A stretch of DNA of 64,000 nucleotides from Clostridia bacterium (GTDB lineage: Bacteria; Bacillota; Clostridia; Christensenellales; CAG-138), in assembly GCA_017616435.1 (NCBI GenBank), contig JAFZYC010000045.1:59541-123540 (forward strand). The letters run 5' to 3'. A model generated the notes under the pieces. It saw nothing but the letters and a program-made list of their open reading frames with translations, had not been told where the DNA came from and made no database searches. Positions 17,653-33,564 of this stretch are shown here, piece by piece; positions within the stretch are counted from its first letter, which is position 1; every line of letters starts with the position of its first letter. The position numbers and the translations under genes are program-made.

Positions 17653-18651
17653 TCACAGCTCGATACGGTAGATAACGACCTCGTTTGGGAAGTCCGCCAT
17701 CAGATAGACGCATCCGTCGCCGCCGAGGACGATGTCCTCATTGGGGTTATCCGGGAACAGGTCGAGCCTGTCGTAGGGGAGTATCGTGTATGCGGCGAGC
17801 GTGCCCGAAGCGTCGTACTTCGAAATGCTGACGCCCGTTTCGCCGTCGGCGAGAGCCGCTCCCGATCTGTCGAGGAAGTAATGGGAGCCGTCGGGGCCAT
17901 CGCCGAGATACAGGCCGTCCCAATGTCTGAAGGGCACGAACGGCACGCCCTCCGCGAAGGCGAATATCGGTGAACCGTCCTCATCGCGGCCGGAGATATC
18001 GACGATCGTTTCCGGATCGCTCCAGCTGCGGCCCTCGATATCGAGCTCCTTTCTGTAATAGCCCTTGCCCGCCGATCTGGACGATACAGAGAACACCTTC
18101 CCGTCGGAAACGTACATGAACGAGCTGAGCTTTTCGGTGAACCCGCCGGAGAGCCGAACGGTCTCGCCGGAGGACATATCGTACATCCTGCCGAGGAAAA
18201 CCACAAGATCGCCGAGCACCGCGAAGGGCGGCCAGTCCATATCCTCCGGGAGCACTGCGAGCCTCGTGCACTCGCCGGTCTCCGTGTCGTAAACGAGCAC
18301 CGACGAGGGCTCGTCGTGGATATAGATCTTCCCCTCGCCCACGAAGAAGCGATAGGGCAGATAACAGATCACGTCCTCCGAATACCCGGTAAAGCGGTAG
18401 TGCACATCGTTTTCGCCCTCGCCGGGGACGAGCCGCGCTATGACCGTCCCGCAGGAGCTGAAATCCGCCGCCGTCTTCGCGGGCGCCTCGGTGGGCTCCT
18501 CCGTCGGCTGTGTCACGGTCTCCGTGGGCTTGGGCGCGTCGGTGGGATCGACAGAAGCTTCCTTCGGCTGCCTGCACGCCGCAAGAGACAGAATAACCAC
18601 TAGAACAAGAACAATCGCAGTGGCTTTTGACAAAGAAATGATTAGTTTCAT
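17653..18651 (-). CDS. Lipoprotein with a PT-rich linker and a beta-propeller-like domain, unknown function
   Basis: 332 aa. Lipobox LSLAAC|RQP and linker PTDAPKPTETVTQPTEEPTEAP. The body shares motifs with the N-domain of 18735-20504 (GEGENDVHYRF, VPFVPF, ISKYDASG). Confidence 0.75.
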   Translation of the reverse strand: MKLIISLSKATAIVLVLVVILSLAACRQPKEASVDPTDAPKPTETVTQPTEEPTEAPAKTAADFSSCGTVIARLVPGEGENDVHYRFTGYSEDVICYLPYRFFVGEGKIYIHDEPSSVLVYDTETGECTRLAVLPEDMDWPPFAVLGDLVVFLGRMYDMSSGETVRLSGGFTEKLSSFMYVSDGKVFSVSSRSAGKGYYRKELDIEGRSWSDPETIVDISGRDEDGSPIFAFAEGVPFVPFRHWDGLYLGDGPDGSHYFLDRSGAALADGETGVSISKYDASGTLAAYTILPYDRLDLFPDNPNEDIVLGGDGCVYLMADFPNEVVIYRIEL

Positions 18652-18734
18652 TGGGTTCTCCTTTCTTTTTTCATGCTAGGATAGTTTTGCCTCTCATATA
18701 TATAACGCACAACAGATACTTTTGGTTGCATTAA

Positions 18735-20504
18735 TTATGACCCGCTTTGTGTATATCCGCATACTACACAGATGGAATCGCCGCCAATTGCTGTGTACCA
18801 TGTATGCTGCCCATATCCTCCGCCTACGCTACCGCACCCCTTATCACAAGTAATCCAATGCTGAGAGGAATTGTACCCATAATGATTAGTATATACACAA
18901 GACCATTGTCCTCCGCAGGCATAAACGGTTTTTAGGTAATACCCGTTGATACTTGAAATGTTGACTGTCCTTTTTGTAGTTTTATCTATATTGCTCTTTC
19001 TTGTCGACTCATAAATTGTTACGATAGCATTCGAACGAGAATAATACAGTATTGCATGATTGGTTTGCCCGGGAACATCATATGCTACCAAATAATCCAT
19101 CTCTTCCATATTAGCAAAACTAGCATCATTCACAACGGTACTGTCGTTCATGTTGCCATAAATAAAGTATCCCACGTCTTCCTTTAGTTTTTTTGTCTTT
19201 TTATGTGTTCCAAGCAGATAGGCATAGCTGACAAATCCGGAACAATCCATGCCAGTTGTTTGTAGATTTTTGGTATAGCTAATGTTGCCTGCTGTTAAAC
19301 CGTTATCCAAATCATCATCAAAATCGTCGAGATTCGCAAAATACTCGTTTCCCCAACAATACGGTATCCCAATGAAGTTTCTTGGCGGAGTAACACCTTG
19401 AATAAAATGAGGAAGAATTACACCCGGGGGAGTAGACATATTATTACTTGTTAATGTCCAAAGGTGGTTCTTAGCATCATTAGCGCGCTGCTTGACTTGA
19501 TTTCTGGTTAGGCTAGTCTGCGTATAAACGGTTCTGGTGTTTAAGGCTCGCATACTAGAGGGCATGATTTTATATGCGAAATCTTCAAGGTCTTGAATAT
19601 GCGAATCATACTGTTTCTGAAGATTTGGCCTTGTAATGTAGACACCTTCTTCACGACACAGCATTGTATAAATTGTATCGTTGTCGCTTATGAATGCTGC
19701 AGTCTGCGGAATTGAAAAAGCATTTCTGTAATCTATTACGGTACAACCTATCAGGTCGCCTTCAAAGTCGTACTTTCTGATTGTGTATTCCGTTTCGATA
19801 ATTGGAACAAATGGGACAAACTCATACACCCCAATTAGTATACAATCCTCTGATTCTGCCAGATACTGTGCGAGAGTATTATCGCCAGTATTAACAGAAA
19901 CGGTGTTGCCTAAAACAGAGAATACTTTTTTAGGGGAAAATGAATCTGTCACTTCTGCGTTATAGGAAAGCTCCCATTCTTTTAGACTGTTAAGAGAATA
20001 GCATCTGCAATCAATAGTAAGCAACTGAAGTATCCCGTTCTGATTTCTCAAACTAAATATATCCGAAAACTCCAGTCCTTCAGGAATGCTTATCGTGCCG
20101 CAGAGTTCTCCGGAATCCGAAATTGCATAGATTGTGGTTTCGTCGTAATCGATCAAATAATACAATTCTTCATAGCGGCACATAAACCTTGGCCTCGTAC
20201 ATTCGCTTAATGGTATGTAATGCAAGCTTTTTCCATTATAAACTACAATTCTGCATTTTACTGAATCTAATACTGCAACCTTGTTTCCATCAACAATAAA
20301 TGCTTCAGGGCCAGAACGCCAATCGTATTCCGTCTTATACCCTATTTCGTTTTCACTTTCACCAGCGGGTAAATACAGAATGATTTCAGCATCATTGAGG
20401 GCGTCTCCTGTATAACCAGATTCACACTCGGGACGCGCTGCGGCGCCAACGAATACCGAAAGCGCCATGATCGTGATAATGATTGCCGACATTATTTTCT
20501 TCAT
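18735..20504 (-). CDS. Secreted NlpC/P60-family cysteine peptidase with an N-terminal propeller-like domain and a Cys-rich C-terminal tail
   Basis: 589 aa with an AAGGAGG RBS and a signal peptide MKKIMSAIIITIMALSVFVGAAA. Catalytic motif GMDCSGFVSYAY, then NHAILYY (His). The C-terminal roughly 70 aa carry 8 Cys. The gene is markedly AT-richer than its flanks. Confidence 0.8.
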   Translation of the reverse strand: MKKIMSAIIITIMALSVFVGAAARPECESGYTGDALNDAEIILYLPAGESENEIGYKTEYDWRSGPEAFIVDGNKVAVLDSVKCRIVVYNGKSLHYIPLSECTRPRFMCRYEELYYLIDYDETTIYAISDSGELCGTISIPEGLEFSDIFSLRNQNGILQLLTIDCRCYSLNSLKEWELSYNAEVTDSFSPKKVFSVLGNTVSVNTGDNTLAQYLAESEDCILIGVYEFVPFVPIIETEYTIRKYDFEGDLIGCTVIDYRNAFSIPQTAAFISDNDTIYTMLCREEGVYITRPNLQKQYDSHIQDLEDFAYKIMPSSMRALNTRTVYTQTSLTRNQVKQRANDAKNHLWTLTSNNMSTPPGVILPHFIQGVTPPRNFIGIPYCWGNEYFANLDDFDDDLDNGLTAGNISYTKNLQTTGMDCSGFVSYAYLLGTHKKTKKLKEDVGYFIYGNMNDSTVVNDASFANMEEMDYLVAYDVPGQTNHAILYYSRSNAIVTIYESTRKSNIDKTTKRTVNISSINGYYLKTVYACGGQWSCVYTNHYGYNSSQHWITCDKGCGSVGGGYGQHTWYTAIGGDSICVVCGYTQSGS

Positions 20505-22944: not shown

Positions 22945-25386
22945 TTATATGAACAGATTGACGTTCGATTCCTCCGCGTCGCCGAGGTAGGTGCCGACTC
23001 CGCCGATCTCGACGCCGTCGATCAGCTCCTCCGGCTTGATGCCCATGACGTCCATGCTCATGGAGCAGGCAACGAGCTTCACGCCGTTGTCGAGGGCCTT
23101 CTTTATAAGCTCCTCCAGCGAATCGATGTTCTTGTCCTTCATTATCCTCTTCATCATCGCGGTACCCATGCCGCCCATGTTCATCTTGGAGAGCTTTAGC
23201 TTCTTCGAGCCGCGGGGCAGCATGGCGCCGAACATCTTTTCTATCGCGGTCTTTTTGACCTTCTGCTTTTCGGGCTTCCTCAGCGCGTTGAGGCCCCAGA
23301 ACGTGAAGAACATCGTGACAGGCCTGCCCATGGCGAGCGCGCCGTTCGCGATTATGAACGAGGCGAGCACCTTGTCAAGATCGCCGTCGAACACGATTAT
23401 CGTCTTGCCCTCGGGAGCTTCCTTCACTGCGAAGCCCTCCTTCTTCGGCGCGTTCTCAACGCCCTTTTTCACCACGGCCGCGTAGTCGCTCCCGCGCTTT
23501 TCGTTCGAAACGAGGGTGTTGCCCGTGCGCCTGCACCAGGACGCGATATCCTTTGCAAAGCCGGGATCGGAGGCCAATACCTCCAGCGTGTCGCCCTCCT
23601 TCATCTCGCCGAGCTTCTTGTAGACCTCCATGATGGGGCCGGGGCACTGCATACCGCAGCAGTCAAGACGCACTGTTTCCATATCGTTCACGCTCCTTGA
23701 TGATGTTTCCTCCTTCGCGGGGGCGGGCGCCTCCGCGCTTTCATGCACCGCTCTGTAGAATCTCGCGCCGCCGGGATAGATCGCGACGTCCTCAAAGCCC
23801 GACTGCGTGAGTATCCTTGCCGCGTTGTAAGCCCTGACGCCTATCGCGCAGAAAACTATCGTCCTCTTTTTGGGATCGAGCTCGCCCATGCGCGATCTGA
23901 TCTCGCCCAAGGGTATGTTCACCGCGCCGGGCACGGCGTAGGCGGTCACCTCCGCCTCCTCGCGCACGTCGAGCAGCTGCGCCGCCGGGTTATTATCCGG
24001 CTCGTCCCATTCCGCCTGGCGGACGAGGCCCTTCAATACGTTCTCCGCCACGAAGCCCGCCATGTTGACTGGATCCTTTGCGGAGGAGAACGGCGGAGCG
24101 TAAGCCAGCTCCAGCTCCTTGAGCGCCGTGACGCCCGCCCCGAGGCGCTGCGCTGCGGCTATAACGTCTATGCGCTTATCCACGCCCTCGCTTCCGACCG
24201 CCTGCGCGCCGAGTATGCGGCTCCCGTCGGCGGTGAACGTCAGCTTCATGGTCATCTGCGCCGCGCCGGGATAGTACCCCGCATGGTGGTTCTGAACGAC
24301 CGTGACCGTTTGGTAATCGCGCCCCTTCACCATGCCGCGGCTCTTCAGCGTCTTCTCGTTCGCGCCGGTGAACGCCGCCGTCAAGCCGAACAGCTTCACT
24401 ATCGAGGTCCCCTGCGTGCCGCGGTAGACCTCGTCACCGCCCGCGATATTGTCCGCCGCGATGCGGCCCTGCTTGTTCGCCGGGCCGGCCAGGGCTATCA
24501 TAGCCTTCCCGCCCGAGACGAAGTCCGTGACCTCTGCCGCGTCGCCCACGGCGTAGATCGAGGGATCCGCCGTGCGCATGCGGTCGTTGGTGACGATGCC
24601 GCCCTTCGCGTTGAGCTCAAGCCCGCAGTCCCCCGCGAGCGCGCCGTTCGGCCTTACGCCTATCGCGAGGACTACGAAATCGGTGTCGATCCTCCTGCCG
24701 CTCCTGAGCCTGACCGCTATATCGTGCCCGCTGTCGTCGAATGAATCGACGCCGTCGCCGAGTATGAGCTCGACGCCGTTTTCCGTGAGTTCCCTATGCA
24801 CGAGCTTCGCAAGCTCCGTGTCGAGCGGAGCGAGCACCTGATCCATGGCCTCGACGAGCGTCACCCTGAGCCCCGCATGGCGGAGGTTCTCCGCGATCTC
24901 GACGCCTATGAACCCGCCGCCGATCACCGCCGCGCTTTCGGAAGCGCCGACGGCGTCTCGCAGGTCGTCCGCGTCGGGCACTGTCCACAGCGTCCTTACC
25001 CGCGGGCTGTCTATGCCGGGTATCCTCGGCCTTAACGGGCTCGAGCCCGTTGCTATGACGAGGGTATCGTAGCTTTCGTCGTATTCCGTGCCGTTCGCGA
25101 TATCCTTAACGCGCACCTTCTTGCCCGCGCGGTCGATCGAGACCGCTTCGGAGAGCGTCCTTACGTCGATATTGAACTTCTTTTTCATCGCCTCCGGCGT
25201 CTGCAGCAGCAGCGCGCGCCGCGATTTTATAACGTCGCCCACGTGATAGGGCAGCCCGCAGTTCGCGTAGGAGATGTATTCCCCCCGCTCCAGCATAACT
25301 ATCTCGGCCGTCTCGTCGAGCCTGCGGAGCCTCGCCGCGCAGGAGGCTCCCCCCGCGACGCCGCCGATTATGACAACTTTACTCAT
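22945..25386 (-). CDS. CoA-disulfide/persulfide reductase-like flavoprotein fused to rhodanese, TusA-like and DsrE/F-like domains
   Basis: 813 aa. FAD motif VVIIGGVAGGAS and redox Cys SYANCGLPYH. Rhodanese loop FCAIGVRA. TusA motif CCGMQCPGP. The C-terminal DsrE-like segment begins KTIIVFDGDLDKVLASFIIANGA. Confidence 0.8.
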   Translation of the reverse strand: MSKVVIIGGVAGGASCAARLRRLDETAEIVMLERGEYISYANCGLPYHVGDVIKSRRALLLQTPEAMKKKFNIDVRTLSEAVSIDRAGKKVRVKDIANGTEYDESYDTLVIATGSSPLRPRIPGIDSPRVRTLWTVPDADDLRDAVGASESAAVIGGGFIGVEIAENLRHAGLRVTLVEAMDQVLAPLDTELAKLVHRELTENGVELILGDGVDSFDDSGHDIAVRLRSGRRIDTDFVVLAIGVRPNGALAGDCGLELNAKGGIVTNDRMRTADPSIYAVGDAAEVTDFVSGGKAMIALAGPANKQGRIAADNIAGGDEVYRGTQGTSIVKLFGLTAAFTGANEKTLKSRGMVKGRDYQTVTVVQNHHAGYYPGAAQMTMKLTFTADGSRILGAQAVGSEGVDKRIDVIAAAQRLGAGVTALKELELAYAPPFSSAKDPVNMAGFVAENVLKGLVRQAEWDEPDNNPAAQLLDVREEAEVTAYAVPGAVNIPLGEIRSRMGELDPKKRTIVFCAIGVRAYNAARILTQSGFEDVAIYPGGARFYRAVHESAEAPAPAKEETSSRSVNDMETVRLDCCGMQCPGPIMEVYKKLGEMKEGDTLEVLASDPGFAKDIASWCRRTGNTLVSNEKRGSDYAAVVKKGVENAPKKEGFAVKEAPEGKTIIVFDGDLDKVLASFIIANGALAMGRPVTMFFTFWGLNALRKPEKQKVKKTAIEKMFGAMLPRGSKKLKLSKMNMGGMGTAMMKRIMKDKNIDSLEELIKKALDNGVKLVACSMSMDVMGIKPEELIDGVEIGGVGTYLGDAEESNVNLFI

Positions 25387-27084: not shown

Positions 27085-27371
27085 TCAGGGACCGATATCC
27101 TCGGCTCTTCCGCATATCACTGTGACGGTATCGTTCTTTACGCTCGCAAATCCGTCCGAGATCTTAAGGCTTGCGATAACGCGGCCTCCGGAGGATATCT
27201 TCGCCTCGGAGCCGGGCTTCAAAGCTGCGATCAGGGGCAGGTGCCCGCGCCTTATGCCGAAGCTGCCTCCGCCCTCGCCCATATCGTTATCCCTCGCCTC
27301 GAGCGTGACGGAATCGCATTCGAGCCTTTTTGCCTCCCCCTCCGGTGTGAGGAGCACGAAAGTCAGAGCCA

Positions 27372-27372
<1 letters not shown>
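27085..27372 (-). CDS. atpC: F-type ATP synthase epsilon subunit, short form (beta-sandwich domain only)
   Basis: The track ORF is 27085-27438. The internal ATG at 27372 overlaps the atpD stop (TGATG). The 95-aa product is MALTFVLLTPEG...IRRGHLPLIAAL.... Confidence 0.75.
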
Positions 27373-29627
<2,255 letters not shown>

Positions 29628-29628
<1 letters not shown>

Positions 29629-31847
29629 CAGCTCGCCTCCTTAAACCTTTTGAGCGCGGCCTTTATGCCCGCTTCGACGGAGCCGCTCATCGCGTTTCCC
29701 GTCTTGAGCGCGGCAGTGAGCTTGGGACATTTGCTTTCGAAATACCCGTAAAGCCCCTTTTCGAAGGCCTCCATGGCCTCGGGCTCGACGTCGTCGGCAA
29801 AGCCCTCCGCCACGGCGTATATGAGGAGCGCCTGCTTCCAGTCGGGAAGCGGCTCGTAGCGTCTCTGCCTGAGCGCGCGCATCATCCTTACGCCCTGATC
29901 GAGCACCTTGCGCGTGCTGTCGTCAAGGTCGGAGCCGAACTGCGCGAAGGTCGCGAGCTCTCGGTACTGCGCGAGCTCCATACGCAGCCTCGACGAGATC
30001 TTTTTCATGAGCTTCGTCTGCGCCGCGGAGCCGACGCGGGATACCGAAAGGCCGACGTTGACCGCCGGGCGCTGACCCTCGTTGAACAGATCGGATTCGA
30101 GGAATATCTGTCCGTCGGTGATCGATATGACGTTCGTGGGGATGTAGGCGGAGATATCGCCCGCCTGCGTTTCGATGATGGGGAGCGCGGTAACGGAGCC
30201 TCCGCCCGCCTCGGGCGAGAGTCTTGCCGCGCGCTCCAAAAGCCTTGAATGGAGATAGAACACGTCGCCGGGATACGCCTCACGGCCGGAAGGCCTGTGC
30301 AGCAGGAGCGAGAGCTCGCGGTACGCGACGGCGTGCTTTGAAAGATCGTCATAGACTATGAGGCAGTCGCGGCCGGAGTACATGAAGTATTCGCTCATAG
30401 CGGCGCCGGCGAACGGCGCGATGTACTGCATCGACGCGGAGCTCGAAGCCGGCGCGGAGACTATCGTTGTGTACTCCATAGCGCCGTATTTTTCGAGCTT
30501 GGAGCGGATCTCCGCGACGGTGGAGTCCTTCTGCCCTATCGCAACGTATATGCAGGGCACGTTCTTGCCCTTCTGATTTATTATGGTATCGATCGCGAGA
30601 GCGGATTTGCCCGTCTGGCGGTCGCCTATTATGAGCTCCCTCTGCCCGCGGCCGATGGGAACGAGCGCGTCTATCGCCTTAAGTCCGGTATGCAGCGGCA
30701 CGGATACCGAGCGCCTGTCGGGTATGCCCGGCGCGCCGAACTCTATCGGGCGGCGCTCCCTCGTCCTTATCCTGTCCTTGCCGTCTATGGGGCGGCCGAG
30801 CGGGTCCACGACCCTGCCCAAAAGCTCCTCGCCCACGGGCACGCTCGCTATCCTGCCGACCCTTCTGACGCGGCTAAGCGTCTCGATATGCTCGTACTTG
30901 CCGAACACGACGCAGCCTATCCTTTCGGGCTCGATATCGAGTATCATGCCCCTTTCGCCGCATTCGAACTCCACGACCTCGCCGTACATGATATCGGCAA
31001 GACCGTCAAGACGGCAGATGCCGTCCGAAACGGAGAGCACGCGGCCGAGCTGGAACACGTCTATGCGCGGCTCCGCCTCCTCTATGCCCTGCATGAGATC
31101 GGCAAGTATGCCGTCCGCGTCGAGCTTTTCTGGAAGCGGCCGCTTGAGAAGATCGCGCTCCAGATGGTACAGCCGGTTCTTGACCGTGCAGTCGTAGACG
31201 GTATCGCCTATCCTGAGGCGCAGTCCTCCTATGAGCTCCGGATCCGTCCTGACCCAGTACGAGGGCTTGCCGCCGACCTTATCGAGCAGCTCCTTCGCCC
31301 TTTCGCCGATCCTTTCGGTCAGCTCCTCGTCGAGCGGGAACGCGCTCGTCAGCGTGACGTACAGCACGTCGTGGTGCATGAGGTAGCACATATCGCCGGG
31401 CGTGAGCTCCAGCTTTTCGAGTATCTTATCCGCGTAGTCCCTTTCGCGCCGGCGGATGCCGCCCGCCTGAGGCTCCTCGGCGAGATACCCGGCGAGCCTC
31501 TTGCAGAGCTCCTTGACCGCCCTCTCGCGCTCCGTGACTATCATATCCCTGAGCTCGCCCTCGGAGGCGTTCTCCGCCTCGCTCAGCATAGCGAGCTTCT
31601 TTTCCTCATATCTGCGGCGCATCTCCTCGAGCGCGGCGTCGTCCCGCGGCTCCTCGGGGAGCTCGGGAAGCGGCGCTTCTTCCGTCTCGCCTTCGTAATA
31701 GGCGCGCTCGATAGTCTCCGCTTCGTCGAGAGCGGCGTTTATCTCCTCCCTGCGGGAGGCGAATATCCTTTTTATCGGTTTCCTTCCGACGAGCCATACG
31801 ATGCCCGCGAGCAGAAGGAAATTGATCAGCGTGTATACGTATTCCAT
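29628..31847 (-). CDS. atpA: Fusion protein: b-like membrane stalk + delta (OSCP) + alpha subunit of F-type ATP synthase
   Basis: A single uninterrupted 739-aa ORF. Residues 1-45 are b-like (INFLLLAGIVWLVGRKPIKRIFASRREEI). The delta C-terminal signature is PELIGGLRLRIGDTVYDCTVKNRL. The alpha part runs from about residue 255 (Walker A GDRQTGKS, ...PAVNVGLSVSRVG). Confidence 0.85.
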
Positions 31848-32276
31848 TTATTTCTGTCCGCCCGAGACGAGCCTTTTCGCGAATGCGGCCATGAGCTCTT
31901 CCATCGACGAATCGAGCCTGCCGCCTATCTCGTCCCTCAGCGTCTCCTCAGCTTCCTTTTTGCGGGCGCGGCCGGCCTCGATATCGCGCGATACGGCCTC
32001 GATCTCCGCCTCCATAGCCCTGCGTTCGCGCTCCATGAGCAGCTCGCGCTCCTCCCTTTCGCTCTCGAGCGCCTCCTCGAGCCGTTTCCTTTCCGCTTCC
32101 TCCGCCATGAGCTTCCGCTCCGCCGTCTTCTCCTTGAGCACGCGGGCGTTCTCTATCCTCTCGCGGCGCTCGTCGAGGAGCTTCAAAACAGGCTTAAAGA
32201 GCAGTCTGTCGAGCACGAGCGCGAACAGGCCGAAGCAGATCACGGTCCATATTATCTGTGAAACGTCGATGGACAT
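31848..32276 (-). CDS. atpF: F-type ATP synthase b subunit
   Basis: 142 aa. N-terminal TM segment, then FKPVLKLLDERRERIENA and a long charged helix. Confidence 0.8.
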   Translation of the reverse strand: MSIDVSQIIWTVICFGLFALVLDRLLFKPVLKLLDERRERIENARVLKEKTAERKLMAEEAERKRLEEALESEREERELLMERERRAMEAEIEAVSRDIEAGRARKKEAEETLRDEIGGRLDSSMEELMAAFAKRLVSGGQK

Positions 32277-32323: not shown

Positions 32324-32557
32324 TCAGCCGATCTTGCCTATCAGCATGAAAGCGATGAGCAGGCCGTAGATCGTAAGCGCCTCCATCAGCGCGAGCGAGA
32401 TGAGCAGCGTGGAGCGGATCTCCTTCGCCGCGTCGGGCTGCCTTGCGATGCTTTCGAGCGCGGCCTTTGCCGCCCTGCCCTGGCCAAGCGCCGGGCCCAA
32501 GGTGGAGAGCGCTATCGCGATGGCTGCCGCGATGGCAATAAGTGCGGATTCGGTCAT
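32324..32557 (-). CDS. atpE: F-type ATP synthase c subunit
   Basis: 77-aa hairpin protein. Loop ARQPDA and carboxylate in [11 protein letters not shown]. Confidence 0.9.
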
Positions 32558-32594: not shown

Positions 32595-33257
32595 TTATTC
32601 GTCTATGAACTCCTGCAGGTAGGAGGCCGTGAGCATGGTGTAGACCATCGCCTGTATCGCGCAGAACAAAAGCGACAGCGCCATGATCGGTATCGGCGCG
32701 CCTATCGGCAGTATCTTATAAAGCTGTTCCGTAATCGTTTCCTCGCCGAAAATGTTGCCGAAGAGCCTCAGCGCGAGGGAGGCGGGCTTAATTAGCTCAT
32801 CCATGAGCAGGAGCGGAAGTATCGGCGAAAGGAAATGCTTGAGGTAATGCTTCGCACCCCTGCGGATAGCGGATATCTGAATGAACAGGAACGCGAGTAT
32901 CGAGAGACCGAGCGTCACGGAGAGGGACGAGGTCGGCGCCTTGAAGAAGCGGGAGATGCCGACGCCGGGAATGAGCCCGGTGTAGTTGGCGAAGATAATG
33001 AAGCAGAAGAGCGAGCCCAGGAACCAGATGTACCTGCGTGCGTTCTCCCTGCCGAGGATATCCGTAAAGAAGCCGTCGAGGTATTCGACGCCCTTCTCTA
33101 TCACGTTCTGGAACCTGCCGGGGCGTTCTTTGAGCCTGCGGGTAACGAGAAAACAGACGATCGCAGTCAGCGCGATGATGACGAGCATCGTCACGACCTC
33201 CGGCGTTATGTCGAGTATCCCGAATATCCTTACGATCGGTTCGGACTTTTCACCCAT
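32595..33257 (-). CDS. atpB: F-type ATP synthase a subunit
   Basis: 220-aa polytopic protein with the conserved LALRLFGNIFGEE (essential Arg). Confidence 0.88.
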   Translation of the reverse strand: MGEKSEPIVRIFGILDITPEVVTMLVIIALTAIVCFLVTRRLKERPGRFQNVIEKGVEYLDGFFTDILGRENARRYIWFLGSLFCFIIFANYTGLIPGVGISRFFKAPTSSLSVTLGLSILAFLFIQISAIRRGAKHYLKHFLSPILPLLLMDELIKPASLALRLFGNIFGEETITEQLYKILPIGAPIPIMALSLLFCAIQAMVYTMLTASYLQEFIDE

Positions 33258-33564
33258 TCGCGTTTTCCTCCGCCGCTTCCCCGCCCTCGGCGCCGCGATC
33301 CTTCAGCAGGCGCGAAGTGAAGAAAATGAGCCCCGCGGTATGCCCGACCGCCCCCGGTATGAGCGTGAAGAGCGGATCTATGCCGAGCTTTCCCGAAATA
33401 AAATACAGCGCGGCAAGATAACCCGCCGCAGTGAGAGTGCGCAGGGGCATGGCAAGATACATGCCGCCGCCCCTTTTTATGGCCGCGCGCGTGATGAGAT
33501 CGTTTATGAACGATGTCAGCACTCCGCCCGCGAAGGCGAGGAGCGCCGGAAGGATCGTCTTCAT
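33250..33564 (-). CDS. atpI: Small membrane protein at the head of the atp operon (AtpI/AtpZ-like)
   Basis: 104 aa with 3-4 hydrophobic segments. It overlaps the atpB start by 8 nt. The call rests on position only. Confidence 0.45.
   Translation of the reverse strand: MKTILPALLAFAGGVLTSFINDLITRAAIKRGGGMYLAMPLRTLTAAGYLAALYFISGKLGIDPLFTLIPGAVGHTAGLIFFTSRLLKDRGAEGGEAAEENANG

Follow-up and report, generated by a model that had tools for sequence, protein, structure and literature searches.

F-type ATP synthases have long been taken to have one peripheral stalk and one a-subunit. The locus described here raises the question of what kind of enzyme would be assembled when an element of the peripheral stalk is encoded in the same polypeptide as the alpha subunit. 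The first-pass annotation of the window (the whole 64,000-nucleotide stretch of DNA that was analysed) had proposed an uninterrupted 739-aa b–delta–alpha triple fusion, and this was borne out by translation of the ORF, by Pfam and by the NCBIfam model TIGR00962. The gene is a single 739-aa ORF with an ATG start and zero internal stops, in which a b-type helix and stalk (residues 1–157) are followed by a delta/OSCP C-terminal domain (158–235), an 8-residue linker and alpha (244–739):

29628..31847, minus strand: complete fusion gene (b-like stalk, C-terminal domain from delta, alpha), 739 aa and a stop codon; open ORF, domain matches, relatives
31377..31847, minus strand: b-type stalk segment, residues 1–157; AF2 model, conservation, dN/dS, P0069/P0071 matches
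31782..31844, minus strand: single N-terminal TM helix of the b-like part, residues 2–22; hydrophobic stretch EYVYTLINFLLLAGIVWLVGR, models, Pfam, paralogy
31632..31700, minus strand: acidic, proline-rich variable insert in the b tether region, residues 50–72; low pLDDT, low conservation
31143..31376, minus strand: delta/OSCP C-terminal domain, without the N-terminal domain, residues 158–235; Pfam, PDB sequence matches, AF2, Foldseek
31119..31142, minus strand: 8-residue linker KRPLPEKL from the delta C-terminal domain to the alpha N-terminal helix, residues 236–243
29628..31118, minus strand: full F-type alpha plus stop codon, residues 244–739; TIGR00962, three Pfam domains

The alpha part scored 729.9 bits against TIGR00962 (atpA; cut-off 484.45) over residues 245–737, covering model positions 5–499 of 503. 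It contained the domains ATP-synt_ab_N (PF02874, 268–331), ATP-synt_ab (PF00006, 388–603) and ATP-synt_ab_C (PF00306, 610–735), and its translation carried the P-loop GDRQTGKS; the TIGR00962 score and the three domains indicate that the fusion product includes a full-length F-type alpha. The delta part matched Pfam OSCP at residues 158–233 with 48.7 bits (cut-off 22.3), at profile positions 99–172 of 172. The C-terminal signature of delta, LIGGLRLRIGDTVYDCTVKNRL, was found in the 739-aa translation as the first-pass annotation had stated; what that annotation missed is that the N-terminal helical-bundle domain of delta is absent from the fusion. We judged it absent because OSCP profile positions 1–98 had no Pfam match in the fusion, no PDB sequence match to delta/OSCP extended beyond the C-terminal domain, and the stretch ahead of it folds into b-type helices. 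The match of residues 4–49 to Pfam ATP-synt_B (28.0 bits) equalled the 28-bit cut-off, so that membership of the b part in PF00430 is borderline; it is aided by the AF2 model, by the paralogy to the free b described below and by two orthologues that matched positions 2–126 of the profile (P0069 with 41 bits and P0071 with 36 bits).

An AF2 model of residues 1–270 (mean pLDDT 90.6) contained the TM helix (residues 2–22, pLDDT about 90), a long helix and the delta C-terminal fold, which was predicted as four strands and two helices with pLDDT of about 97. The b segment was laid out as the TM helix, a tether helix, a long helix (70–123) and three short C-terminal helices, and it ended in the conserved block LTPGD..YL..HDVLYVTLTSA. 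Residues 50–72 were the only low-confidence stretch of this model (pLDDT 55–62). The full-length model (pLDDT 68 overall), which we used for topology only, was poor in the nucleotide-binding domain of alpha, as most rows of its alignment were partial; its N-terminal helix was predicted as H2–20 and H22–52, as against H2–55 in the 270-residue model. In Foldseek searches, the top matches of the full-length model were the three fusion chains of PDB 9JC1. Local matches of the delta domain, including 9jc1_K (3.3 Å rmsd over 102 columns) and 6zit_S, fell in the range 3.3–4.0 Å. For the N-terminal 266–270 residues, the best match both by sequence and by Foldseek was the mycobacterial b-delta protein (7JG5 and 7NKL, chain d), and V-ATPase subunit E chains, which likewise combine a long helix with a globular head, were also among the fold matches of the N-terminal model.

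An artefact or pseudogene, in which a lost stop or a frameshift falsely joins atpF', atpH and atpA, has nothing in its favour apart from the unusual architecture and the many partial database records among the relatives. It has next to no likelihood, as does the stop/start junction hidden by a sequencing error that had been raised in the first pass: the frame was open in 72 independent genomes as well as in the window. These were species-representative rumen and gut Clostridia MAGs (73 ORFs including the window, uninterrupted at 732–766 aa), labelled by NCBI as Clostridia, Oscillospiraceae or Acutalibacteraceae, with 66–91% identity in the alpha part. The survey of related atp operons that had been called for found the same fusion in these 72 genomes, in an operon identical to that of the window. 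The ratio dN/dS was below 1 in the b, delta and alpha parts (0.10–0.46 in the b part), which points to purifying selection on all three and, together with the 73 open ORFs, rules out sequencing error or a pseudogene. Amino-acid conservation began at the first Met. Conservation without gaps was seen in the TM helix and C-terminal helices of the b part and in the C-terminal domain from delta; the insert at residues 50–72 was the sole gapped region and the least conserved of the eleven regions profiled (0.15 identity to the window). The same architecture was found in P0071, from a more distant lineage (753 aa, in a 32-member cluster, one member of which is on 158 contigs). The locus is a conserved, genuine gene fusion, relatives of which are encoded in 341 GTDB species representatives. 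An exact look-up in the assembly index found no entry for the 739-aa window protein.

The operon runs I-like, a, c, b, fusion, gamma, beta, epsilon. This is the canonical F-type order, with the fusion immediately before gamma and beta. The other genes of the operon are:

33250..33564, minus strand: membrane ORF in the atpI position, 104 aa; no Pfam match at E<=5
32595..33257, minus strand: a subunit, 220 aa; Pfam ATP-synt_A 2.3e-43, profile 2–217 of 217; LRLFGN arginine motif
32324..32557, minus strand: c subunit, 77 aa; Pfam ATP-synt_C 1e-19; carboxylate in ...ALMEALTIY...
31848..32276, minus strand: free b subunit, 142 aa; Pfam ATP-synt_B 29.1 bits; best NCBIfam match the B' model PRK08476
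28792..29628, minus strand: gamma subunit, 278 aa; Pfam ATP-synt 1.1e-56
27372..28778, minus strand: beta subunit, 468 aa; Pfam ATP-synt_ab, ATP-synt_ab_N and C-terminal domain
27085..27372, minus strand: epsilon subunit, 95 aa, counted from the Met overlapping the beta stop

Many related loci also have the atpI-position ORF ahead of atpB. The normal b gene that had been noted upstream of the fusion is indeed present; its TAA stop directly adjoins the ATG of the fusion, and its counterparts in related loci have a median length of 140 aa. The gamma start and the fusion stop share one base. The start of the fused b part was 32% identical to that of the free b (E=7e-6); the two are paralogues, and the free 142-aa b is presumed to be the partner of the fused b in each stalk. 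Epsilon consists of the beta-sandwich alone: ATP-synt_DE_N matched residues 4–90 of 95, ATP-synt_DE was unmatched, and the length in 61 relatives was 86–107 aa. There was no separate atpH in the operon, as had been claimed, and phmmer searches of the 64-kb window, probed with the full delta of P0101, an E. coli delta and the alpha and beta encoded in the window itself, found no further delta-, alpha- or beta-like ORF beyond the operon genes. No second alpha or delta was present in the relatives' flanks, which reached up to 8 kb. The search for an unfused atpA that the first pass had recommended was therefore negative for these regions, and the fused alpha is the only alpha gene found in the 64-kb window and in the relatives' flanks up to 8 kb.

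In ordinary enzymes, delta's N-terminal domain sits on the three-fold axis of alpha3beta3, binds the N-termini of alpha and restricts the enzyme to one stalk, and the TM helices of b-type subunits are the element that binds the a-subunit. In an enzyme built from the fusion, every alpha would bear a b-binding delta C-terminal domain, preceded by a b-type stalk helix that brings a membrane anchor of its own. Because alpha carries this stalk element and delta's N-terminal domain is absent, the alpha3beta3 head would necessarily carry three stalk elements. Each fused b helix would pair with one free 142-aa b, as in a b/b' heterodimer, and three peripheral stalks spaced about the head would result, each probably pressing its own a-subunit to the c-ring. 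If protons per turn scale with the number of a-subunits, after the engineered precedent discussed below, H+/ATP would be up to three-fold higher, permitting ATP synthesis at very low proton-motive force and, in reverse, operation as a low-gear pump. A three-stalk F1Fo, probably with one a-subunit per stalk and raised H+/ATP, is the reading that we favour and consider reasonably probable. We infer the stalk number, the b/b' pairing, the a-subunit number and the change in coupling ratio, and for the recruitment of a-subunits by three heterodimeric b/b' stalks we extrapolate from an enzyme whose b2 is homodimeric. The first-pass annotation had seen in the fusion a stoichiometry problem, with three alpha and one delta. 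A solution to it has been published in the form of an engineered deltaΔN-alpha enzyme with up to three stalks (PMC12229609), and by analogy the problem is better read as a prediction of three stalks than as a paradox.

Processing of the fusion could restore canonical stoichiometry with a single stalk: either most copies would be cut, in the delta–alpha linker or at a site separating b from delta, or an internal non-canonical start would also yield alpha, and the mature complex would have one intact fusion and two free alphas. Consistent with this, the eight linker residues (236–243) were non-helical in both the full-length and the 270-residue models, and the alpha N-terminal helix was weakly conserved in the per-region profile. 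NCBI annotation in some relatives also starts at an internal Met; however, these starts are scattered over residues 149, 157 and 269, and as they fall in three differing places they look arbitrary. The resulting names, 'alpha' from internal Mets or 'delta, partial', amount to a systematic annotation error at these genes that makes the architecture invisible in protein databases. Across 69 loci, no in-frame ATG, GTG or TTG had a conserved position at the junction, and 7 of the 69 ran from the delta domain to the alpha barrel without any candidate start codon; an internal start near residue 250 giving normal alpha, as suggested in the first pass, is thus unsupported. The spacing from GDT(V/I)YD to (F/Y)Q.GR(V/A) was 51 residues in 68 of the 69 loci, and this invariant linker length suggests a structural role. 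Furthermore, without the delta N-terminal domain there is no known selector of exactly one fused copy per head (PMC12229609). On this evidence, a single stalk produced by processing is unlikely. A comparison of Shine–Dalgarno energies with internal sites was low-powered, since even the fusion's own start had a weak one (median −5.8 kcal/mol), which translational coupling presumably explains.

Three membrane-anchored stalks might alternatively serve a single a-subunit, with the other two acting as stiffening stator anchors, as in V-type enzymes, and H+/ATP unchanged. The resemblance of the N-terminal model to V-ATPase subunit E fits this possibility, but the stalks here have b-type TM helices, the a-binding element. 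V-type ATPases do combine two or three stalks with one a-subunit (PMC12002316); by contrast, each stalk observed in the engineered F-type enzyme carried an a-subunit (PMC12229609), and the two stalks of the Chloroflexus enzyme hold two a-subunits (PMC12002316). We consider an arrangement with one a-subunit distinctly unlikely.

Extended from the window to its relatives, the three-stalk reading leads to a more tentative proposal, which we regard as possible rather than probable: a large uncultured clade of Clostridia from gut and rumen (72 or more species-level genomes, possibly several hundred) may have an obligately three-stalk enzyme, alpha3beta3-gamma-epsilon-a3-b3-c_n, with an a-subunit per stalk and an H+/ATP equal to the c-ring size. 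If this is true, H+/ATP would be about three times the value of any enzyme characterised so far, and energy-limited fermenters would possess a natural gear for low proton-motive force that has been hidden as annotation pipelines truncate the gene. A lowered proton-motive force requirement for ATP would bear on energy conservation in strictly fermentative gut bacteria.

The one-stalk rule has been broken by two 2025 papers, one on an engineered enzyme and one on a natural two-stalk enzyme. Ueno et al. engineered a deltaΔN-alpha fused FoF1 of Bacillus PS3 (Nat Commun 16:5410; PMC12229609; PDB 9JC1) that reached a maximum of three stalks and three a-subunits, with an H+/ATP of 5.8, compared with 3.0, although about two stalks were present on average and triple-stalk particles were rare. 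As in the window, delta's N-terminal domain is deleted in this enzyme and the C-terminal domain is in frame with the N-terminus of alpha. The delta pieces are PS3 residues 105–178 and, in the window, OSCP profile positions 99–172; bar a 1-residue gap, the GGSGGS junction engineered into 9jc1_I and that of the window are collinear, and epsilon's C-terminal domain is missing from both the engineered enzyme and the window operon. The PS3 fusion was designed, whereas that of the window is natural and conserved. Moreover, PS3 has a free, dissociable b2 homodimer, whereas the window has one b joined covalently to alpha beside a free second b that is shorter, so that occupancy by the fused stalk element would be obligatory and the stalk heterodimeric.

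Natural deltaΔN-alpha genes were pointed out in Acidaminococcus by Ueno et al. (PMC12229609). Such double fusions (D2RLW6 of Acidaminococcus fermentans, and the 594-aa Christensenellaceae-like P0090) resemble the window in lacking both a separate delta and the N-terminal delta domain and in carrying the C-terminal one on alpha, and by its sequence architecture the window fusion fits the deltaΔN-alpha class. In the double-fusion operons, however, a true stop separates the free 170-aa b from the 594-aa fusion and there is one b gene, whereas the window protein has about 157 more residues at its N terminus (b-type TM and stalk) and a second b is kept. The mycobacterial b-delta protein (AtpFH; 7JG5, 7NKL chain d) likewise joins a b TM helix and stalk to delta beside a shorter free b, but it contains a full delta including the N-terminal domain, is unfused to alpha and forms a single stalk. 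The window fusion scored 28.5 bits against this family (NF009961, PRK13428; cut-off 328), with only the last ~60 residues aligned. An N-ATPase was also rejected, as alpha scored 591 against 750.5 (TIGR03324) and b 26–27 against 224.7 (TIGR03321), and the gene order is canonical F-type instead. The N-ATPase order described by Dibrova et al. in 2010 is reportedly beta, epsilon, Q, R, a, c, b, alpha, gamma.

V/A-type EG stalks are heterodimers of a long-helix E with a globular head and a shorter helical G, with one stalk per non-catalytic subunit. Unlike the predicted window stalks, they lack a membrane anchor and any fusion to subunit B, and they serve one a-subunit; the likeness is one of analogy only, without sequence relationship. 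The natural two-stalk F1Fo of Chloroflexus aurantiacus, alpha3beta3-gamma-epsilon-delta2-a2-b4-c10 (PNAS 2025; PMC12002316), is an F-type enzyme in which peripheral stalks and a-subunits both number more than one. It owes this multiplicity to a shortened N-terminal delta domain, which dimerises atop the head, with delta, b and alpha as separate proteins, and it has two stalks as against the three predicted for the window. In the literature outside subscription journals we found no published b–delta–alpha fusion, the nearest being the work of Ueno et al. and the Chloroflexus paper. The deltaΔN-alpha fusion itself is already known; what is new here, as far as that literature shows, is the extra b subunit fused to it, in a natural design whose stalk would be unable to dissociate from alpha.

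A canonical F-type atp operon lies on the minus strand of the window and includes the 739-aa ORF flagged by the first-pass annotation:

33250–33564, minus strand: putative membrane ORF of 104 aa in the atpI position
32595–33257, minus strand: a subunit
32324–32557, minus strand: c subunit
31848–32276, minus strand: free b subunit, 142 aa
29628–31847, minus strand: fusion ORF, 739 aa
28792–29628, minus strand: gamma
27372–28778, minus strand: beta
27085–27372, minus strand: epsilon, short, 95 aa

The fusion ORF has no internal stops, and its ATG comes straight after the TAA that ends the free b gene. Its first-pass description as a b–delta–alpha fusion was correct, because Pfam and NCBIfam resolve three parts: a b-type N terminus (Pfam ATP-synt_B, residues 4–49, 28.0 bits, equal to the cut-off), an OSCP match at residues 158–233 confined to profile positions 99–172 of 172, and a full alpha part (NCBIfam TIGR00962, 729.9 bits, model positions 5–499 of 503). 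The ORF in the atpI position has hydrophobic stretches and overlaps the start of atpB, and many relatives carry a conserved counterpart ahead of that gene; the window ORF had no Pfam match even at E ≤ 5.

Using fusion residues 1–300 as a query, we found dozens of metagenomic proteins with 40–60% identity covering b, delta and the alpha N terminus, and a search across GTDB species, each represented by one genome, identified a relative in 341 genomes. All 80 loci listed among these belong to uncultured MAGs from rumen or gut, with the labels Clostridia, Oscillospiraceae, Acutalibacteraceae or 'Ruminococcus sp.'; the highest identity within this set was 71%. This survey of related atp operons revealed a frame of 732–766 codons, open all the way between the b-like start and the alpha stop, in 72 of the 80 loci as well as in the window, with the same operon order in all loci compared. 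Among the loci outside the 72, six were cut by contig ends and two had a reported match starting in the upstream b gene; one locus, L032, fell just outside the ORF-length screen (725–770 aa), and its ORF is an uninterrupted 766 aa. Mean identity to the window was 56% in the b transmembrane helix and 68% in the delta domain, and the block closing the b part (LTPGD..YL..HDVLYVTLTSA) was nearly invariant. In the regions examined there were no gaps from residue 73 on, and the sole variable stretch was an acidic, proline-rich insert in the tether of the fused b part (residues 50–72; window 31632–31700, minus strand). Pairwise dN/dS was 0.10–0.46 for the b part, 0.02–0.33 for the delta domain and linker, and 0.03–0.14 for the alpha part. 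The open frames in relatives, the conservation and these ratios exclude both a decaying pseudogene and a sequencing error, which the first-pass annotation had suggested might hide a stop/start junction.

In NCBI records these genes go by 'subunit delta, partial' or 'subunit alpha'. Among the latter, three proteins of 498–587 aa, each named 'F0F1 ATP synthase subunit alpha', match exactly the C-terminal ends of uninterrupted ORFs of 734–766 aa:

P0266 (587 aa): ORF at L010 3350–5581, protein begins at internal Met 157
P0057 (498 aa): ORF at L032 5571–7871, protein begins at internal Met 269
P0269 (586 aa): ORF at L057 8001–10205, protein begins at internal Met 149

The annotation pipeline thus conceals the b part of these ORFs, either alone or together with the delta part, and the fusion architecture is invisible in protein databases because records are partial or start at internal methionines.

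A free alpha subunit could instead arise from an internal start around residue 250, as the first-pass annotation had allowed. The delta motif GDT(V/I)YD and the alpha barrel motif (F/Y)Q.GR(V/A) were 51 residues apart in 68 of 69 loci; no in-frame ATG, GTG or TTG in this interval was position-conserved across the 69, and seven loci contained no candidate start codon there at all, leaving the internal start unsupported. A Shine–Dalgarno comparison of starts had limited power, since such a sequence drives even the fusion's own start only weakly. We found no second alpha or separate delta in the flanks of each related locus (up to 8 kb), and within the 64-kb window phmmer probes detected no further ORF resembling alpha, beta or delta.

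Elsewhere in the window, an 813-aa protein (22945–25386, minus strand) combines pyridine-nucleotide disulfide oxidoreductase, rhodanese, TusA and DsrE/DsrF-like domains and looks like a sulfur-carrier or persulfide-handling fusion. GC content falls to 0.46 at 18–20 kb, compared with about 0.60 in adjacent 2-kb bins; this region (17653–20504, minus strand), whose two ORFs (332 and 589 aa) had no Pfam match, may be acquired DNA.

An AlphaFold model of fusion residues 1–270 (me02b93ccfd94) was confident (mean pLDDT 90.6). It comprises one long helix including the transmembrane segment, the disordered insert, a 54-residue helix with three short helices, a four-strand/two-helix domain, the 8-residue linker, and the alpha N-terminal helix and first barrel strand. 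Foldseek matched this model to the mycobacterial b–delta chain, to delta/OSCP subunits, with local superpositions on delta C-terminal domains at 3.3–4.0 Å rmsd (including chain K of 9JC1, the engineered Bacillus PS3 enzyme), and to V-ATPase subunit E (for example 9b8p_J, 193 columns, 7.7 Å rmsd). In a PDB sequence search, the junction was collinear, with a single one-residue gap, with 9JC1 chain I, annotated 'ATP synthase delta subunit, ATP synthase subunit alpha'. Fold matching of the full-length model, which is poor in the nucleotide-binding domain, placed the three 9JC1 fusion chains in the first three positions (about 576 aligned columns, where ordinary alphas reach about 500).

When fusion residues 140–345 were run with HMMER against all 1.84 billion cluster representatives, three natural architectures emerged:

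Triple b–deltaCTD–alpha: P0066 (745 aa) and the more distant P0069, P0071 and P0073 (724–753 aa)
Double deltaCTD–alpha: P0090 (594 aa, Christensenellaceae-labelled cluster) and P0116 (Acidaminococcaceae)
Full-length delta–alpha: P0101 (676 aa, OSCP profile 19–172)

The P0101 cluster has four members (NCBI/Logan/ENA) and includes the delta N-terminal domain; a multi-stalk argument does not solve its three-alpha, one-delta stoichiometry puzzle. A Christensenellaceae-like double-fusion operon (L082 2206–8505; also L083 and L084) encodes a 594-aa deltaCTD–alpha, with a real stop between it and a single free 170-aa b gene. The c subunit of this operon is unusually long as called (125 aa). In L081, from a distant triple-fusion lineage, the operon contains the fusion and a single free b of 157 aa. 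Because triple-fusion operons pair one free b with the fusion, and the b of double-fusion operons is single and stop-separated, the triple fusion looks like a b/b′ system with one paralogue absorbed.

The window epsilon (27085–27372, minus strand) is a beta-sandwich without the C-terminal helical (inhibitory) domain, and these helices are also absent in 61 relatives (86–107 aa). Short epsilon and triple fusion are not obligatorily linked, since epsilon in the distant triple-fusion lineage is full-length (138 aa) and contains PF00401.

The fusion is real and contains the sole alpha found; beyond this, we infer how the enzyme is assembled. An alpha3beta3 head built from this gene would have to carry three membrane-anchored stalk elements, because one b is covalently part of each alpha. 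The free 142-aa b, closest to b′ models and a paralogue of the fused b segment, would be the latter's natural partner, giving a b/b′-type heterodimer per stalk, and each stalk would, by analogy, hold an a-subunit. A multi-stalk enzyme is the somewhat favoured outcome; three working a-subunits, and with them a multiplied H+/ATP ratio, are a more tentative proposal. Speculatively, the variable insert could provide flexibility, easing the fit of three stalks to a symmetry-mismatched c-ring.

The deltaΔN–alpha principle giving multiple stalks, and natural double fusions, are already published; the literature searched, which covered few subscription journals, yielded no account of the extra b fusion or of its wide distribution in gut and rumen Clostridia. 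Ueno et al. (2025) reasoned that the delta N-terminal domain, lying on the pseudo-three-fold axis, permits no more than one stalk; in the PS3 enzyme they removed it and fused delta residues 105–178 to alpha (PMC12229609). The product has up to three b2 stalks with an a-subunit on each (about two of each on average by SDS–PAGE), an H+/ATP of 5.8 versus 3.0, and a halved pmf for ATP synthesis (PMC12229609). They noted a natural deltaΔN–alpha gene (D2RLW6) in the A. fermentans operon and predicted a natural multi-stalk enzyme (PMC12229609); a natural Chloroflexus F1Fo with two stalks and two a-subunits has since been solved (PMC12002316). Fused b–deltaCTD with a free short b also recalls how E and G are arranged as a heterodimer in V-type stalks, an architectural analogue. 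The window protein has the same design as the engineered PS3 fusion, and both enzymes have an epsilon without C-terminal helices, but unlike that design it also incorporates a b subunit covalently into each alpha.
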